17,659 nt of DNA from Planctomycetota bacterium (lineage in GTDB: Bacteria; Planctomycetota; UBA1135; UBA2386): assembly GCA_947501605.1 (NCBI GenBank), contig CANMWZ010000054.1:1-17659 (forward strand). Direction: 5' to 3'. The notes under the pieces were generated by a model that saw only the letters and a program-made list of their open reading frames with translations, ran no database searches and was not told where the DNA came from. Within the stretch, counting starts at the first letter, position 1, and the number at the start of each line of letters is the position of its first letter. Made by a program: the position numbers and the translations under genes. Positions 1,568-15,271 of this stretch are shown here, one piece after another.

Positions 1568-3784
1568 ATGCTGAAACGACTCCTCCCCCTGGCGTTCCTC
1601 GCAACACCAGTTCTCGCGCAGGCCAACGCCGTCCCCGGGCTCGACATCCGCATGTACGACCTGACGGACATCAACTTCAACGGCAGCCGCGGCACCGGTC
1701 CCAGCAGCGAAGCCGGCTTCTCGATCGGCCACTCCTGGTGCAACACCGGCACCGTCAACCTGCCGTGGCAGTCGCAGAGCGGCGGCGTCATGGTCGACCA
1801 GTATCCGCGCATCACCTTCCTGCTCGCGCGCGAGAACGGCGGCCGCTTCGTGCAGGTCTGCGGGCGCAGCTACTGCAAGCACTCGCCGACGGCGTTCAAT
1901 TTCTCGTCCGGCCCGTGCGCGCCGTGCACCGCGTCCGGCGGTGCGTTCTTCTATGTCGGTTGCTCGGACACCTATGGCAGCGGCATCAACGCGAGCCAGT
2001 TCTACCTCGGTCCGACCGAGGAGATCGATCCGTGGCTCGGCACCTGGCCGCCCGCCGGTAGCTACTTCGACCGCGGAGATCCCCCGGTCGCCGGCGCTGC
2101 CGCCGTCGACTCGGTCCGATCCCTGAACACCACCGGCTTCGACCAGGTCAAGAACCGCATCACCGTGCGCGAGAGCGAACTGCTCGCCGGCTCCAACTAC
2201 TACGCGCAGGTCTACGCGTGCGTTCAGGGCGAGCCGGGCACGGCGCGCGGCAACAACGCGGCCAGCCGTCGCGTGGCGATCTCCGGCGTGCCCGGCAATT
2301 GGGCCGCCTCGGCTACTGGGACCTCGAACATCGGCCCGATCGTCGCGCAATGGCCTGGTGCCACGTCGCACAGCGGCGGCAATGGCAACAATGACGGTCA
2401 GTTCGCGGTCGCGGTCAAGGTCACCGGCCCGGTCGCGGGTATGTGGCACTACGAGTACGCGGTCCAGAACCTCGACAACAACCGCGGCGGTGCCACCTTC
2501 CGCATCCCCGTCGCTCCGGGTGCTGTGGTGCAGAGCGCGGGCTTCCGCGATATCGACACCGACCCGCTCAATGACTGGACCTTCGCTCGCACGCCGAGCG
2601 AAATCGCGTTCAGCGCCAGCGGCACGAACTCCCTCGACTGGAACACCATCTACAACTGCTGGTTCGACTGCTCGGTCGCGCCCGGCGCCGGATCGATGAC
2701 CATCGACCAGGCTCGGCCCGGCACAGGTGCCACCAACGTGCAGGTGCAGGCGGACTCGCCGAGCGGCCTGAGCTACGCCCAGAAGTTTGCCATCGGCGCT
2801 TCGTGCGGCACGTGCCAGGGGTCGTTCTACCAGCTGTTCCCGACCAGCGGTCTGTTCGACCTCGGCGGTCGGTCTATGACGTTGACCCCGTCGACCAACG
2901 CCTACACGGTGACGGGCTCGACAGTCGCGTTCGTGCCGGCGGCCGGGACCAATCTCGGTCTCACGTTCAACTCGCAGACGAACGTCACGCTTCCCTTCGC
3001 CCTCTCGTACCCCGGCGGCTCGACCACGTCGCTGCAGGTCAACCCCTGCGGTTACGTGACGGCACAGAACGCCCCGGTGCAGCTGCTGCCGACGGCGACT
3101 GCGCTGCTGCAGGGCGGACCGCGCTGGGCCGCGGCGTGGACGCTGCTGCAGCCGCAAGCGGGCAGTGCCAACGTCTGGTTCGATGCGACTCCGGCTCGCG
3201 CGATCCTCACCTGGAACGCGATGCCGATGATCGGCGGCACGAGCCCGAGCACGTTCCAACTGCAGTTCTTCCCCAACGGCGTGGTCCACGTCGTCTGGCA
3301 GAACGTTGCGACCTCGAGCTTCGCGGCGATGACGGGTTGGACCCCAGGTGGCGGCCATCGCGACCCCGGCTCGATCGACCTGTCGACCTCGCTGTCGTCG
3401 CCGCTCGTGCTGTGCGGTCCGTCGTTCGACGGTCTTTCGCTCGGGGCCGATGCCAATCCGGTGCTCGGCACGACGCTGAACTGGCAGATCGGTGGCATGC
3501 CAACGGGGACGACCGCTGGTCTGCTGTTCCGCTCGGTGCAGCAGGCGACGCCGCCGATCGACCTCACGTCGGCCGGCATGCCGGGGTGCTTCCAGTACCT
3601 CGTTGCGCCGGATGCGGCGTTCTTCACGACCTCGGGTGCGACGGCGCAGGTGCCGCAGTTCGTGCCCAACTCGGTCGCGCTGGTGGGCGTGTCGCTGGTC
3701 GGTCAATCGGCCATCTACTTGCCGCAGTTGACGCCGCTCGGGTTCGTTGCGTCGAACGGGTATGTGCTCACCGTCGGTCTCTGA
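1568..3784 (+). CDS. Large secreted multidomain protein (signal peptide, Cys-rich N-terminal domain, NIDO-like module, conserved CTD)
   Basis: 738-aa ORF with strong GC3 bias, Sec signal MLKRLLPLAFLATPVLA|Q, and a G/S/T/N-rich extracellular composition. Confidence 0.92.
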   Translation: MLKRLLPLAFLATPVLAQANAVPGLDIRMYDLTDINFNGSRGTGPSSEAGFSIGHSWCNTGTVNLPWQSQSGGVMVDQYPRITFLLARENGGRFVQVCGRSYCKHSPTAFNFSSGPCAPCTASGGAFFYVGCSDTYGSGINASQFYLGPTEEIDPWLGTWPPAGSYFDRGDPPVAGAAAVDSVRSLNTTGFDQVKNRITVRESELLAGSNYYAQVYACVQGEPGTARGNNAASRRVAISGVPGNWAASATGTSNIGPIVAQWPGATSHSGGNGNNDGQFAVAVKVTGPVAGMWHYEYAVQNLDNNRGGATFRIPVAPGAVVQSAGFRDIDTDPLNDWTFARTPSEIAFSASGTNSLDWNTIYNCWFDCSVAPGAGSMTIDQARPGTGATNVQVQADSPSGLSYAQKFAIGASCGTCQGSFYQLFPTSGLFDLGGRSMTLTPSTNAYTVTGSTVAFVPAAGTNLGLTFNSQTNVTLPFALSYPGGSTTSLQVNPCGYVTAQNAPVQLLPTATALLQGGPRWAAAWTLLQPQAGSANVWFDATPARAILTWNAMPMIGGTSPSTFQLQFFPNGVVHVVWQNVATSSFAAMTGWTPGGGHRDPGSIDLSTSLSSPLVLCGPSFDGLSLGADANPVLGTTLNWQIGGMPTGTTAGLLFRSVQQATPPIDLTSAGMPGCFQYLVAPDAAFFTTSGATAQVPQFVPNSVALVGVSLVGQSAIYLPQLTPLGFVASNGYVLTVGL

Positions 3785-3932
3785 GAAGGGACTGCGGTTG
3801 TGAGCCGCTGGCTGCGGGGCACGGACCTGCAGCCGGCGGGCACTTGGTCGATGCCGACGCGCGCCTCGTAGTCTCTACGGACACGAGGCTCATGAAACCG
3901 AGCTTGACGAACTTCCAAGAAGGAGCAGAGCC

Positions 3933-4271
3933 ATGGCCGCCCCCGCAGTGTTCGCGAGTCTGATCCCGCTCTTCGTCGTCGCCGCGATCCGGCGAGCCGA
4001 GGAACGCATTCATCGACAACTCGTCGAGGGGAAGGCGTTGGCGGCGGAGACTGCGATTTCGGTGACCCTCGGCCGTTCGTTCGACGCGAGACGTCTCCAA
4101 GCCTTGGTGGAAGGCGGGGCGGTACGAAGGACCGCGACTGGCCTGCACTTCCTCGATGCCGATGGGTGGAACGCGCATGAGAGCCGTCGCCGCCGCCGGG
4201 TAGTGATCGCACTGTGCGTCGTACTGGGGCTGATCGTCGTCGGCGCGGTGGTGTTCTTCACCACGCGGTGA
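3933..4271 (+). CDS. Small membrane protein, hypothetical
   Basis: AGGAG at 3921-3925 lies 7 nt before the ATG. The N-terminus is hydrophobic and a C-terminal TM helix follows RRRRR. Confidence 0.75.
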   Translation: MAAPAVFASLIPLFVVAAIRRAEERIHRQLVEGKALAAETAISVTLGRSFDARRLQALVEGGAVRRTATGLHFLDADGWNAHESRRRRRVVIALCVVLGLIVVGAVVFFTTR

Positions 4272-4376
4272 GTGCCCTTCTCGGCACACGATTCGACGCG
4301 CCGTGAAGCTCTGTCGTTCTGTTCGAGTCCACGAGCTTCGCCTCGTCGCGAAGCCGAGCTGGACCCCATCTCGAGC

Positions 4377-4835
4377 ATGACCAAAGCCCAACACCCCGAC
4401 TCCGCACCGCGCAGCTACGAAGCGCACGCAGCTTCGACTGCGATCTTCGGCCGAGTTGCAGCCGCCGTGCGCAGCCATCGTCTCACTGTCGACGGCCCGG
4501 TGCGCAATGGCGCGCCCGGCGAGGCGCCGACGCCGGGCGAACTCGTTCTGGTCGCGGTTGCGAGTTGCGCGGCCGAGGTGTTGCAGGTGCTCGCGCACGA
4601 TGGCGCGGTGCCCTTCGCCGGTGCGGCGGTGACGGCGCGCGGCGTCATCGATCTCGCAGCGCAGCCGCGGGCGGACGTCACGGTGTTCAGCTCGGTCGAG
4701 CTCGACATCGTGCTGCGCGGACCTTCGGCCGAACAGGCTGCGGGGCTCGTGGCGGGATTCCAGCGGCGGTGTCCGGTGTATGGGTCGCTGGCGGTCGCCA
4801 GCGGACGGATGGCCGTGCGGCACTGCGTGGAGTAG
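4377..4835 (+). CDS. OsmC/Ohr family protein
   Basis: DGP..G..PTPGEL..AVASC and RRCPVY supply the two family cysteines. ATG 4377 is in frame with ORF 4272..4835. Confidence 0.88.
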   Translation: MTKAQHPDSAPRSYEAHAASTAIFGRVAAAVRSHRLTVDGPVRNGAPGEAPTPGELVLVAVASCAAEVLQVLAHDGAVPFAGAAVTARGVIDLAAQPRADVTVFSSVELDIVLRGPSAEQAAGLVAGFQRRCPVYGSLAVASGRMAVRHCVE

Positions 4836-5127
4836 GACGAAGGGCTGCGCGAGGGTGGGCCGGCCGATCACGTCGTCCCGCTGATGGCGAGCGGCATACT
4901 CAGCCGGTCGTAGACCGACAGTCTCTTCGAGTTCCAGCTCTTCGTGTTCCAGATGCGAGCGGGTGGGGGTGCGGGGAGCACGAAGTAGTCGTCTAGGCTG
5001 CTGCCCTGCGAACGCGCACCCGACTGCTCGCAGAAGGCGACGGACTCGCGGCACGCGAGTGCCTTCGCGCCTTCCACGCTCGCTGTCGTGACGCCGCGCC
5101 ATTCCCCCGGCATCCTGCCTCTCCGCC

Positions 5128-6045
5128 ATGAACCTCCGCCTCACCGCCCTCCTCGCCGCCCTCGCCCTGCCGCTCTGCGCGCAGACCACACCGCCGCCCG
5201 CCGACCCCAAACCCCAGCGCGCGGTCCTCGTCACCGGCGCGAGCACCGGCATCGGCCGCAAGACCACCGAACTGCTCGCCCAGAACGGCTTCTTCGTCTA
5301 CGCCACCGCGCGCAAGGACGACGACCTGAAGGCCCTCGCCGCGATCGAGAACGTGCAGGCCGTTCGCCTCGACGTCACGAAGCAGGACCAGATCGACGCC
5401 GCCGTGAAGACCGTCGAAGAAGGCGGCCGCGGGCTGTTCGCGCTGATCAACAACGCCGGCGTAGCGGTGCTCGCGCCGCTGATCGAAGTGAGCGAGAAGG
5501 ACCTCGCGTTCCAGATGGACGCCAACGTCTACGGGCCCTACCGCATGACCAAGGCCTTCGCGGCGATGCTGATCGCGAGCAAGGGTCGCGTCATGACGAC
5601 GGGTTCGATCTCGGGCATCGTCACGTGGCCGATGGGTGGGCCGTACACGATGAGCAAGCACGCGGTCGAGGCCTTCACCGACTCGCTCGCAGCCGAGTTG
5701 CAGCCGTTCGGCGTGCAGGTCAGCGTCGTCGAGCCGGGCAACTACCGCTCCGAGATCATGGCCAACATGAAGGAGCGGCTCGCGCAGGGCGGCTACGGCG
5801 GTGAGGGCTCGCGCTATCAGAAGCAGCTCGATCGCCTGATGACGCAGCCGGAAGAGCGCGAGCAGTTCAAGGAGCCCGACGACGTCGCGGCTGCGTTCCT
5901 GTCGGCGTTGAACGACGAGACGCCGAAGCGCCGCTACCTGGTGGTGCCCAACCAGCGCGAGGCGGAGGTGACGATCCGCGCGGCGATCGCGCGCCGCCGA
6001 GAACTCAGAACAGCTTCATGTACATCCGCAGGCCGTTCGTGGTGA
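5128..6045 (+). CDS. Classical SDR oxidoreductase with an N-terminal signal peptide; the 3' end overlaps the convergent gene
   Basis: TGASTGIG, LDVT, NNAG and YTMSK (YxxxK) motifs; signal MNLRLTALLAALALPLCA|Q. Confidence 0.93.
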   Translation: MNLRLTALLAALALPLCAQTTPPPADPKPQRAVLVTGASTGIGRKTTELLAQNGFFVYATARKDDDLKALAAIENVQAVRLDVTKQDQIDAAVKTVEEGGRGLFALINNAGVAVLAPLIEVSEKDLAFQMDANVYGPYRMTKAFAAMLIASKGRVMTTGSISGIVTWPMGGPYTMSKHAVEAFTDSLAAELQPFGVQVSVVEPGNYRSEIMANMKERLAQGGYGGEGSRYQKQLDRLMTQPEEREQFKEPDDVAAAFLSALNDETPKRRYLVVPNQREAEVTIRAAIARRRELRTASCTSAGRSW

Positions 6046-7420
6046 CCCAGTCGTTGTTCACGTCGAGACCGACGGCTTGGCCGAAGACCGTCACGCCCGA
6101 GAAGAACGGATCGAGCGGGAACGTCAGCGGCAGCGTGTCGGTCGGCGCGCCGCCCGAGAAGTTGAGGAACGTGACGTCCAGCGTGGCTAGGTAGGCCGTG
6201 CACGTGAACGGCTGGATCGGCAGCGTGACGCCGCCGGGGAACTCGGAGAAGCCCAGCGCGTACACCGTGATCGGCATCGTCGGCAGCAGGTTGGCGGTGT
6301 TGAGATTGATCGTCGTGCCGAGCACCGGACGAGCCGAGGCCGCGAGCGACAGCGCCGGCGCGCCGCAGCCGACGCCGAAGGCCGTGGCGCGGGCCGGCTT
6401 GTCGATCGTTACGTTGAAGGCCTGGATGCCCTGGTTGCTGCTCATCGCGTAGAGCGTCGCGGTGTTGCCGCTGATCGCGGCCCACTGGACCGAACCGACG
6501 CCGTTGCTGTTGCCCGTCAGCACACCGCTCGTCAGGTTGCCCGAAGCAAGCGTCAGCGGCGCGCTCGGCACCGTGATGTCGTAGATCACGACGAGCGACG
6601 AGTTGGAGTCGATCACCGCGAGGCACGGCACGCCGTCGATCACGGCGTAGCTGAGCGGACGCTGCGCTGCCGACAGCGGGATCGTCGCGTCGACCGTGGC
6701 CGAGACGCCGAACGACGTGATGCGGCCGTTCGCGCCCTGGTTGCCGATGATCGTGTCCTGGTCGATGAACGTGATGCCCAGGCGGTAGTCGTTGCTCGTG
6801 GTGAGCGTGCCCGCGATACCGGTGTAGGCCGTGGCGAGGTTGGTCGGAACGGCGTCGAGTTGGCCGGTCAGGAACGAGCTGTTCAAGGGGCCCGAGGCAA
6901 CCGTGCCCGCCGCGGCGAAGCGGATCGGATTGCCGCCGCTGCCGCCCGTGATGGCGAACGAGTCACCCGTGCGGGCGATGACCGACGTGTTGTTGTAGGC
7001 GACCGTGGGCGCGGTGGTGAGGCCGAGCGCCTCGCTGTCCCACTTGTAGACCTTGAACGCCGTGGCGGCCGACGTGCTGAGGTTGGCCACGTAGATCGAG
7101 CCGTCGTCGGCGACGCCGGCCTGGTTGACCGCGAACGTGCCGCCCGTAATGCCCGTCGCCACGAGCGTGCCGAGGTCGGCACCGGTCAGGCCGTTGAGGA
7201 CCTTGATGTTGATGCCGCCCGTGCGGCTGACGAGCACGAGATTGCCCGTCACGGGGTTGTAGGCGAAGCCGCGCTCGTTGTTGGCCGAGCCGAGGTACGT
7301 CGCGCTACCGGGCGCGAGCCAACCGCCGACGCCGAAGGTCGCGAGCGGGGTCATCGTCGACTGCGCGAGCAGCGAGCTGGCGGCGACCATCGCCGCGAGC
7401 GGAAGAAGAAGCTTGTTCAT
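6005..7420 (-). CDS. Secreted beta-rich protein (DUF4623-like, probable beta-propeller) with conserved CTD
   Basis: ATG 7420 gives signal MNKLLLPLAAMVAASSLLA|Q. RGFAYNPVTGNLVLVSR..GTFAVN..VADDGSIYVANL resembles DUF4623 as I recall it. The extension to 7621 does not look protein-like. Confidence 0.88.
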   Translation of the reverse strand: MNKLLLPLAAMVAASSLLAQSTMTPLATFGVGGWLAPGSATYLGSANNERGFAYNPVTGNLVLVSRTGGINIKVLNGLTGADLGTLVATGITGGTFAVNQAGVADDGSIYVANLSTSAATAFKVYKWDSEALGLTTAPTVAYNNTSVIARTGDSFAITGGSGGNPIRFAAAGTVASGPLNSSFLTGQLDAVPTNLATAYTGIAGTLTTSNDYRLGITFIDQDTIIGNQGANGRITSFGVSATVDATIPLSAAQRPLSYAVIDGVPCLAVIDSNSSLVVIYDITVPSAPLTLASGNLTSGVLTGNSNGVGSVQWAAISGNTATLYAMSSNQGIQAFNVTIDKPARATAFGVGCGAPALSLAASARPVLGTTINLNTANLLPTMPITVYALGFSEFPGGVTLPIQPFTCTAYLATLDVTFLNFSGGAPTDTLPLTFPLDPFFSGVTVFGQAVGLDVNNDWVTTNGLRMYMKLF

Positions 7421-7497: not shown

Positions 7498-7712
7498 ACT
7501 CGGATCGGGCTGCGACATCGCTGGGACGCCGCAGTCGAGCCGAACGGTGAGGTCGAGCGACGATGCCCGAGCCTTCTGACCACGCGGCGGGACGGTAACT
7601 GCCCCATGCGAACGCGTCCATGCCGTCCGGCGCACCCGGGGCGGCGTGTTGCCCGATCGGTCCATTACCGGCAGCAGTACGGCTCGACCCGCTGCGAGCA
7701 GCAGGTCGCGCT

Positions 7713-11919: not shown

Positions 11920-12384
11920 TTGCAACGCACCCGCACCTACGAATGCATGTGCCTCTTGGACAACCGAGAGGTGCGCAAAGGCTGGCAGCCGCTGAAGGAC
12001 AGCGTCGCCGCCTTGTTCAACAAGCATGGCGCTCAAGTTTTGAGTGCCCGCCGCTGGGACGAGCGCCGTCTCGCCTATCCCATCAAGGGCCAGCAGCGCG
12101 CCACGTTCATGCTCGCCTACCTCAAGGCGGACACGCAGGCTCTGTCGGCGATCCGCCGCGATCTGCAGTTCAGCGACACCGTGTTGCGCAGCCAGATCCT
12201 GAACTGCGAAGAGGTGCCGCCCTCGGCTTACGAGCCCGAAGCAGAGTTCGACATCAACGCCATCCCCGTCGATGACAGCCCGATGGCCTCGTCGAACGTT
12301 GTTCCGGCGGAGGAAATCGCTGAGGACGTTGCGGTGGCGGATATCGCGCCCATGGATGACCCCGTGAAGGAGGATGGACAATGA
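11920..12384 (+). CDS. rpsF: 30S ribosomal protein S6 with an acidic C-terminal tail
   Basis: RTYECMCLL..WDERRLAYPIK..VLRSQI; TTG start 7 nt after GGAG; operon context. Confidence 0.95.
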   Translation: MQRTRTYECMCLLDNREVRKGWQPLKDSVAALFNKHGAQVLSARRWDERRLAYPIKGQQRATFMLAYLKADTQALSAIRRDLQFSDTVLRSQILNCEEVPPSAYEPEAEFDINAIPVDDSPMASSNVVPAEEIAEDVAVADIAPMDDPVKEDGQ

Positions 12385-12812
12385 GCGGCAATAGCTCGTA
12401 CGGCGGCGGTGGTGGCGGTGGCGGTGGCGGTGGCTATGGCGGCGGTGGCGGCGGCTACGGCGGCGGCGGTGGTGGCGGCGGTTACGGCGGCGGTGGCGGC
12501 GGCTACGGCGGCGGTGGCGGCGGTTACGGCGGCGGCGGCGGTGGCGGCGGTTACGGCAGCGGTGGTGGCAACGGTGGTCCGCGTCGCAGCGGTGGCAAGT
12601 TCGGTCGCTTCGGTCAGAAGCGCGCCGAGGTCCTGCCGACTGAGCCGCTCAACTACAAGAACCTGCCCTACCTGTCCAAGTACCTGATGCCCAACGGCAA
12701 GATGCAGTCGCGCAAGCGCACCGGCTTTGGTGGTCAGCACCAGCGCCAGCTGGCCGAGGCAATCAAGCAAGCTCGCTTCCTCGGCCTCTTGGCCTTCGTC
12801 GGGAGGCAATGA
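12381..12812 (+). CDS. rpsR: 30S ribosomal protein S18 (Cys-free) with a Gly/Tyr-rich N-terminal extension
   Basis: LNYKN..L.KY...GKMQSRKRTG....QRQLAEAIKQARFLGLL; ATGA overlap with rpsF. Confidence 0.95.
   Translation: MSGNSSYGGGGGGGGGGGYGGGGGGYGGGGGGGGYGGGGGGYGGGGGGYGGGGGGGGYGSGGGNGGPRRSGGKFGRFGQKRAEVLPTEPLNYKNLPYLSKYLMPNGKMQSRKRTGFGGQHQRQLAEAIKQARFLGLLAFVGRQ
12399..12554 (+). repeat. Coding GGY-codon tandem repeat: Y-G11-Y-G6-Y-G8-Y-G6-Y-G6-Y-G8-Y
   Basis: Runs of GGC/GGT codons punctuated by TAC/TAT. Confidence 0.95.
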
Positions 12813-14708: not shown

Positions 14709-15271
14709 ACGTCCCGAACGCCATCACCCTCTCGCGCCTCGTCGTCACCGCGGCGACTTTCGTCTGTCTCGAGCTGGTGGCCGACCCAGCTCGACCGGAC
14801 CCGACGCTGATCTGGTTGTCGTTTGCCCTGTTCTTGGGCGCGGCGCTCACCGACTTCCTCGACGGCTACCTGGCGCGCAAGTGGAACATGGTCACTGCGT
14901 TCGGCCGCGTCGCCGATCCGTTTGCCGACAAGGTGCTGATCGCCGGTTCGTTGGTGCTGCTGCTCAAGTTCCCAGCGGCTAGGTCGGTGATGCCATTCTG
15001 GTATGTCGTCGTGGTGATCGCGCGCGAGTTTCTCGTCACTGCGATCCGCGGCGTCGTCGAGGCCTCGGGTCGCCCGTTCCCGGCCGACAGGCTCGGCAAG
15101 TGGAAGATGGTGACGCAATGCTGGACAGCGGCGTCGCTGATGATGCTGATCGCCGGTGTCGACTCGTGGCATACGCTGACGGTGACAGGGCTCTGGCTCA
15201 GTTTTGCGCTGACCGTGGTCAGTGGCGTCAATTACGCATTCAAGGCCCGGGGCGTGCTGTTCGCACGCTGA
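14705..15271 (+). CDS. pgsA: CDP-diacylglycerol--glycerol-3-phosphate 3-phosphatidyltransferase
   Basis: NVPNAIT.SR, TDFLDGYLARK....T.FG...DP.ADK and GKWKM..Q motifs; GTGA overlap with rimO. Confidence 0.92.
   Translation: MNVPNAITLSRLVVTAATFVCLELVADPARPDPTLIWLSFALFLGAALTDFLDGYLARKWNMVTAFGRVADPFADKVLIAGSLVLLLKFPAARSVMPFWYVVVVIAREFLVTAIRGVVEASGRPFPADRLGKWKMVTQCWTAASLMMLIAGVDSWHTLTVTGLWLSFALTVVSGVNYAFKARGVLFAR

Follow-up and report, generated by a model that had tools for sequence, protein, structure and literature searches.

A shared C-terminal domain on unrelated exported proteins of Planctomycetota: a candidate surface-anchoring module

Introduction

The question raised by the locus described here is what purpose is served by a domain in which two exported proteins with unrelated bodies, encoded on opposite strands of one Planctomycetota contig, both end. 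The locus lies in a window of 17,659 nucleotides, which is the whole stretch of DNA that was analysed (assembly GCA_947501605.1, contig CANMWZ010000054.1, here C54), and the genome to which it belongs, G000, comprises 4.65 Mb at 66% G+C and is 91% complete. The two proteins, A and B, carry a tail domain that marks 3-4% of the host genes. The reading favoured below, to which an even chance is given, is that this tail may act as an uncleaved docking or anchoring module, holding on the cell surface cargo that probably leaves by Sec and a type II secretin. If it is a surface tag, a large part of the surface proteome could be predicted from a profile of the tail in these Planctomycetota, a widespread and mostly uncultured group, and how these bacteria display proteins outside the outer membrane would become a directly testable question. 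The features of the two genes are the following.

1568..3784, + strand: protein A, 738 residues, with a signal peptide, a lysyl-oxidase-like domain, an immunoglobulin (Ig)-like domain, a middle region and the tail domain (open reading frame and gene call)
1568..1618, + strand: predicted Sec/signal peptidase I signal peptide of protein A, residues 1-17, cut ahead of Gln (sequence and heuristic scan)
1634..2356, + strand: cargo domain of protein A, residues about 23-263, predicted fold like the lysyl oxidase catalytic domain (AlphaFold, structural match, conservation)
3410..3784, + strand: tail domain of protein A, residues about 615-738, with Cys616, Cys674, near-invariant Gln713 and SNG at 729-731 (leave-out hidden Markov model (HMM), AlphaFold)
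6005..7420, - strand: protein B, 471 residues, with a signal peptide, a DUF4623-like body and the tail domain (gene call)
7364..7420, - strand: predicted Sec/signal peptidase I signal peptide of protein B, residues 1-19 (sequence and heuristic scan)
6389..6433, - strand: cargo/tail junction of protein B, residues 330-344, where PEP-CTERM starts in 13 homologues (homologue comparison)
6005..6388, - strand: tail domain of protein B, residues about 345-471, with Cys352, Cys407, Gln448 and TNG at 461-463 (leave-out HMM)

One C-terminal Domain on Two Unrelated Proteins

An initial annotation of the window had noted that A and B, otherwise unrelated, end in a common domain, and this has been borne out. 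Although the two tails are alike at a modest level (BLASTP E 5e-4; 26% identity in the family alignment), an HMM built from 92 other G000 paralogues, each less than 33% identical to both, gives them 66 bits each (E values of 6e-19 and 7e-19), against 8.2 bits for the best of 400 shuffles. By these sequence comparisons, the tails of A and B have been confirmed as one family of about 125 residues. Both stretches translate as had been reported, with the LSLAASARPVLG motif beginning 9 codons into 6379..6005. The position of the domain likewise stood, while its bounds had to be moved, with the start lying slightly earlier than marked, near 3410 in A (which takes in Cys616) and near 6388 in B. Sec signals are predicted for both proteins, called here and throughout from the sequence and a heuristic scan rather than SignalP, and their bodies are unrelated, as had been described. 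Neither tail contains a transmembrane helix, and a predicted transmembrane segment of any kind occurs in only 1 of 133 tail carriers.

The AlphaFold model of the tail (pLDDT 89.8, pTM 0.83) is all-beta with an inserted hairpin, a predicted Ig-like beta-sandwich; the domains that resemble it in structure are generic ones of the Ig, FN3 and macroglobulin kinds (best Z 8.8, root-mean-square deviation 2.7, 88 aligned residues). Conservation over 308 domains is highest at a Gln (97%) and at the Pro (95%) and Gly (86%) of an IPxDPxLxG motif, followed by the Gly of PxLG (83%) and the Cys of PGC (78%). The two cysteines may form a disulfide; about a dozen of the G000 copies hold one Cys only in the segment. 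A Cys-Gln thioester was considered and rejected, since 301 of the 308 domains keep the Gln, 59 of them without a second Cys, and a structural role for this residue appears more likely. The last residue is neither conserved nor basic, with Phe, Tyr or Trp in 20 of 116 tails. A homodimer prediction with two copies of the domain returned a score of 0.00, which is no answer either way.

The possibility that a family model might already exist had been raised by the initial annotation. No model in Pfam or NCBIfam gives a useful match to either tail or to any of 42 paralogues, a sequence search of the PDB returned nothing below E 0.12, and no single Pfam family is shared by the 30 nearest atlas clusters. 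A resemblance to YbhB/YbcL-like proteins was rejected as weak (PDB 1fux, E 0.12; NF007330, E 6e-4, in 1 of 42 members), and no YbhB/YbcL-like fold stands among the structure matches listed for the domain. The tail domain therefore appears, on profile searches, to be uncatalogued in the libraries searched. No published description of it was found in a literature search in which subscription papers and bioRxiv supplements, such as those of 10.1101/817700, were largely outside the coverage; the available part of that preprint mentions neither secretion nor a C-terminal domain (10.1101/817700).

Abundance and Position of the Domain

Iterated HMM searches of the 3,559 called genes of G000 (E<=0.01) have detected the domain in 130, with no match to any reversed decoy; a broader model yields 133 copies, and the union of the models 136. 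Among the 133, 113 are C-terminal, 8 are followed by 13-50 extra residues, 6 are N-terminal and 6 near-solo, and no protein contains two copies. Three of the four N-terminal copies scanned against Pfam precede kelch or FGE-sulfatase bodies, and the solo class, which includes truncated or mis-started gene calls, holds three clear proteins of 135-141 residues made of signal plus domain. The heuristic scan assigned a signal peptide to 104 of 128 tail proteins, against 939 of 3,398 other genes; of 26 signal-negative tail proteins, 5 run into a contig end, 17 are rescued by an upstream start (a procedure run without a control) and 4 are left. The 119 cargo regions of G000 fall into 64 single-linkage families. 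The arrangement originally proposed, of a signal, variable cargo and a conserved tail, is thereby strongly supported, with some 133 paralogues. Few paralogues, frequent internal or cytoplasmic occurrence, or a match to a characterised binding domain had been named as grounds for abandoning the proposal; the paralogues proved to be many, none of the 133 copies in G000 is internal, and no family matched.

Outside G000, a profile search of public data has placed the domain in 23,944 clusters (at 50% identity, E<=0.001), with the tail lying no more than 12 residues from the protein end in 149 of the best 150 matches. It was detected in 20 of 21 genomes of an order-level sample, G000 included; of 201 genomes of the phylum 41 carry it, with families for the most part either having it throughout or lacking it. 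In G179, a distant carrier of which 2.31 Mb with 1,939 genes were read, there are 38-40 copies in the same layout as in G000. The homologues of proteins A and B are labelled Planctomycetota; three matches labelled as other phyla and one Dadabacteria match hit cargo only, in searches that did not cover other phyla systematically. Pfam analysis of 84 tail-bearing relatives of at least 300 residues assigned 33 to kelch, 12 to PKD, 3 to RCC1, 2 each to BNR, FG-GAP, Rax2/DUF5122 and C-type lectin, and 4 to single other families, with 24 giving no match, so that the cargo spans kelch, FG-GAP, BNR and RCC1 propellers, PKD domains, lectins and a beta-helix.

Exchange of the Tail on Homologous Cargo

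Homologues of three cargos were surveyed, with the best 120 taken for each (360 in all). For the body of protein B, 106 end in the tail domain, 13 in PEP-CTERM at the same junction and 1 in a divergent tail. For the N-terminal part of protein A, 117 keep the tail domain and the other 3 look partial or frameshifted; a further homologue of this cargo in genome G015 (31% identity over 407 residues, E 2e-40) ends in a dockerin. The third cargo belongs to a tail-bearing protein whose gene comes first in a TonB-dependent-receptor operon of G000 and likewise of G179; it shows the widest range, with 34 homologues carrying the tail domain, 44 a sibling tail, 24 a tail that is dockerin-like by pattern and 2 a short W-x-x-Y ending, and with three more dockerin-like tails among 16 classed as other. 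Homologue comparison thus shows that on the same cargo the tail can give way to PEP-CTERM, a dockerin or a sibling tail, and in the part of the source available it is a listed hallmark of sorting signals that homologues from other lineages carry another C-terminal signal (10.1101/2023.06.07.544157).

The operon just mentioned (L248, G000 C6:37393-49836; L149 in G179) comprises the tail protein, an unknown protein, a TonB-dependent receptor that is 54% identical between the two genomes, ExbB/ExbD-like proteins, TonB and a TPR protein. The adjacency of a tail protein and an outer-membrane receptor suggests surface exposure.

The sibling tail, found in other Planctomycetota and designated 'W-R-D', resembles the tail domain in its position, similar length, cargo, conserved Gln and final SN/SD strand, but the two are described by separate HMMs with little cross-match. 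Profile alignment with hhalign (103 against 44 rows) gives a probability of 87% and E 4e-6, with 0.1% for a reversed control, and smaller alignments give 24% and E 8e-4; the two are probably homologous. In G024 and G089, of the same order, few copies of the tail domain accompany at least 82 sibling tails, with 0-2 sibling matches in other carriers and 0 in G000. G015 is the one same-order genome sampled that has no tail domain, and it contains 24 dockerin matches. A panel of 50 genomes, which are kin rather than independent samples, was divided into 29 tail-domain carriers and 21 non-carriers; dockerin matches are absent from 22 of the carriers, single in 6 and double in 1. In 19 stretches of G015, 13 open reading frames were found with a dockerin near the end (by pattern) and none with the tail domain; six of the dockerin-ended frames have a best match in G179, and five of these matches bear the tail. 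Where tested, each genome has been shown to have one dominant tail type. The wholesale switching between the three tail types inside a single order offers comparative genomics a rare natural experiment for finding the cognate partner.

Several other terminal features were seen in these comparisons. The W-x-x-Y ending, a very short C-terminal motif replacing the tail on the same cargo in some homologues (P0397, P0399, also P0393), is possibly another undescribed sorting signal. The dockerin-ended proteins of G015 (L211-L229) share a conserved segment of about 40 residues or longer just before the dockerin. A third terminal domain, of about 120 residues, occurs in 9 G179 proteins (at loci including L204:17371-18438, L193:9287-10384 and L140:17551-18477) and 2 G000 proteins (C43:13160-15763 and a C9 open reading frame ending at 14997), with a probability of 5.5% in profile comparison with the tail domain.

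Composition of Carriers and Lipid Anchors

The cargo of tail proteins (n=95) has median contents of 2.8% Lys+Glu and 33.5% Thr+Ser+Asn+Gly, compared with 9.1% and 20.7% in other proteins with signal peptides (n=249; p about 1e-40). When exported proteins of G000 are classed by such an extracellular-type composition, the tail is present on 91 of 109 non-lipoproteins and on 1 of 12 lipoproteins (Fisher p 3e-7), the first figure being partly circular because the cut-offs were derived from the cargo; it is present on 6 of 474 other exported proteins. In G179 the tail is on 2 of 249 other exported proteins, and 8 of the 21 extracellular-type proteins without it share another terminal domain. Lipid anchor and tail domain thus tend to be alternatives on a given protein.

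Relation to Known Terminal Modules

The tail had been said to match neither the type IX secretion system's (T9SS) C-terminal domain (CTD) nor PEP-CTERM, and this has held: no HMM matches, and neither motif, transmembrane helix nor basic cluster is present. The T9SS type A CTD (TIGR04183, Por_Secre_tail) resembles the tail in that a Sec signal and variable cargo precede a C-terminal Ig-like sandwich, without a transmembrane helix and in high copy number. It differs in that none of the 42 members examined matches TIGR04183 or PF18962 and in that the tail has an insertion hairpin, two Cys, a near-invariant Gln and N-terminal copies; no T9SS CTD stands among the structural matches listed for the tail model. 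Of eight hallmarks of PEP-CTERM-type sorting signals listed in the portion of a preprint that was available (10.1101/2023.06.07.544157), the tail shows five, namely a C-terminal position, multiple copies, a signal peptide, unrelated cargo and homologues with a different signal. Unlike PEP-CTERM (TIGR02595, PF07589, PF09721), it has no short motif, transmembrane helix or basic cluster, and exosortase is unmatched in part of its carriers. An autotransporter or beta-barrel C-terminal signal also differs from the tail, in which the aromatic end is limited to the 20 of 116 cases given above and the model is a sandwich.

Dockerins are short, calcium-binding, duplicated repeats. Type I dockerin (PF00404), in other Planctomycetota, resembles the tail in standing at the terminus of many signal-peptide proteins whose cargo is unrelated, and the two take the same position on homologous cargo, dockerin being abundant in G015, from which the tail is absent. 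The tail is nevertheless predicted to be an all-beta sandwich of about 125 residues, and PF00404 matches neither any protein of G000 nor any of the 42 members. The 'planctosome' proposal for dockerin modules assumes cohesin partners, according to the part of the source available (PMC6461901), and in this respect the tail system differs, with cohesin (PF00963) unmatched in 5 of 5 carrier genomes while the control matched. By their defining tests the tail falls outside the T9SS CTD, PEP-CTERM and dockerin families, and by position and exchange it appears to work like them. Envelope retention, by different chemistry, is the common outcome of PEP-CTERM, dockerin and a lipid anchor.

Search for Machinery and Partners

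The T9SS components described in PMC12618676 were sought. Profiles for TIGR04183, SprA and GldM gave no match in G000, with their controls silent too, and PorV gave none above the cut-off in any of the 50 genomes, with its control matched; a weak G000 match in the PorV search is a TraF_2 protein. Peptidase C25, the family searched for a PorU-type protease, was not found in G000 (91% complete), G161 or G129, and is present in carriers G113 and G052. A crude scan of G000 revealed no SprA-sized barrel. Exosortase was rejected as the enzyme processing the tail, having no match in 13 of the 29 carriers (86-95% complete); PEP-CTERM itself occurs in 0-4 copies in carriers, and G000 has one PEP-CTERM protein and one exosortase.

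G000 encodes six secretins, one of them in a GspD/E/F-like cluster shared with G179 (gene names assigned by eye). The two genomes have 164 exported or barrel-like proteins in common, of which about 125 were scanned with Pfam, the rest, judged by eye to be housekeeping proteins, amidohydrolases, pilin-like proteins or fragments, having been set aside. No family was assigned to about 23 of the scanned proteins, and none of these appears translocon-like. Neighbours of tail genes conserved in both genomes were examined as a possible general machine and rejected.

Two clusters in G000, L240 (C1:174950-188411) and L241 (C20:9214-14594), encode proteins of 850-1300 residues, most of which are predicted lipoproteins; several contain Big_5 domains and glycine-rich segments together with a C-terminal region that they share. 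The clusters adjoin prepilin-peptidase-like and OmpA-like genes (by eye). The Big_5 lipoprotein family, with 4-12 matches per genome, was detected in 0 of 21 non-carriers. It is a candidate surface scaffold, as a lead only. Another locus, L256 (G000 C4:164611-165579), directly downstream of a tail gene, encodes a signal-peptide protein of 322 residues that Pfam does not match and whose C-terminus is barrel-like; G000 has several such small barrel-like proteins or lipoproteins.

Interpretation of the Tail Domain

In the docking model, Sec export and cleavage by signal peptidase I would leave the protein soluble in the periplasm, where it would fold, in many cases with a disulfide in its tail. 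The folded protein would then cross the outer membrane, most simply via one of the six secretin channels (the GspD/E/F-like locus), and the tail would bind non-covalently to a lineage-specific envelope partner, for which the large Ig-repeat lipoproteins are a candidate. With such a lineage-specific partner, it would be understandable that on the same cargo every lineage has a tail type of its own. GlyGly-CTERM proteins require the type II system to reach the surface, as stated in the available part of the source (10.1101/2023.06.07.544157). Of the two functions initially proposed for the tail, lineage-specific surface anchoring has gained strong support from the cargo swaps and the near-exclusion from lipid-anchored proteins, and for export through an unknown translocon no dedicated machine was found; the existence of N-terminal, extended and solo copies, together with the unconserved last residue, fits a folded, uncleaved module better and so favours docking. 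Several observations weigh against docking. In G179 the tail is on only 19 of 40 extracellular-type proteins (counting detectable copies), and the lipoprotein contrast there, 0 of 4, is not significant (p 0.12); in G000 the corresponding count suffers from the circularity mentioned. An export signal would account equally well for a tail that is almost obligatory on extracellular-type proteins. No partner emerged from the comparison of exported proteins of G000 and G179, made by BLAST at E 1e-5, which would miss a fast-evolving one, and the Big_5 lipoprotein family is present in only 10 of 29 carriers (by a 6-row model). The role of the secretins is an assumption, since G015, which has no tail domain, also has them, and the dockerin-rich G015 and G032 give no match to Pfam cohesin, which leaves the dockerin analogy without a demonstrated partner.

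A broader formulation, offered tentatively, is that the tail may be the address label of an undescribed export-and-display system in several Planctomycetota lineages, read by a lineage-specific receptor or translocon; with the same reserve, this label might be borne by nearly the whole non-lipoprotein exoproteome and be subject to wholesale lineage switches among the tail, sibling tails and dockerins. Somewhat doubtful, yet the most serious competitor in kind, is an outer-membrane export signal with the logic of the T9SS CTD, served by an unrecognised translocon or a specialised type II system that would recognise the folded tail in the periplasm and carry the cargo out, with cleavage optional and retention secondary. 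The sandwich is indeed C-terminal in 121 of the 133 G000 copies and in nearly all of the best public matches, it sits on most extracellular-type signal-peptide proteins and few others, one tail type per genome would suit a cognate machine, and T9SS type A CTDs are likewise Ig-like beta-sandwiches, as far as the available part of PMC12618676 goes. These points are set against the N-terminal and extended copies, the T9SS searches reported above, and the survey of 360 cargo homologues, in which PEP-CTERM and dockerin replacements appeared and no T9SS CTD did (Pfam lists, tails inspected).

Anchoring with no dedicated protein partner, through outer-membrane lipid, lipopolysaccharide or a surface glycan bound by the hydrophobic hairpin, or through a tail-tail coat, is unlikely. 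It draws on the hydrophobicity of the tail (grand average of hydropathy 0.45 against 0.06 for cargo; 0.3% Lys), the conserved hydrophobic positions of the insertion hairpin, the signal-plus-domain-only proteins and the fact that the searches yielded no partner gene. Weak top Foldseek matches to sterol-binding NPC2 (E 3e-3, TM 0.33-0.40) point the same way, but the 50 best structural alignments do not include NPC2, and a lipid binder should work in any host, whereas tails on one and the same cargo differ from lineage to lineage. Least probable is a common structural Ig domain that serves as a generic adhesion module, a spacer or an aid to folding and has multiplied in this lineage, its bearers perhaps remaining in the periplasm. 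The generic Ig, FN3 and macroglobulin matches and the few N-terminal copies would suit it. Ig domains used as spacers are usually internal and tandem, however, and neither arrangement occurs among the 133 copies; one-for-one replacement by PEP-CTERM or dockerin and avoidance by lipoproteins also oppose it.

Cargo of Proteins A and B and Other Observations

The N-terminal cargo domain of protein A has an AlphaFold model (pLDDT 91) whose top structural match is human LOXL2 (5ze3; Z 10.3, 168 aligned residues, root-mean-square deviation 4.1). Lys104, His105 and GCxDxY136 are invariant in 56 aligned sequences, and the Lys and Tyr among them may correspond to the cofactor-forming pair of lysyl oxidase. 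The canonical copper His cluster is not evident in the domain, and a Pfam search with it gave no match. Prokaryotic lysyl oxidase homologues are on record in the available parts of two sources (PMC4448552, PMC6452851). Several paralogues of the domain, all tail-bearing, were seen by eye in G000.

The body of protein B matches Pfam PF15416 at residues 59-169 (E 1.6e-7), and a longer open reading frame start at 7621 is probably not the true start. Elsewhere in the window, a ribosomal protein S18-like gene (12381-12812, + strand) lies between S6-like and L9-like genes (by eye), and its product has a long N-terminal extension of low complexity that is rich in Gly and Tyr.

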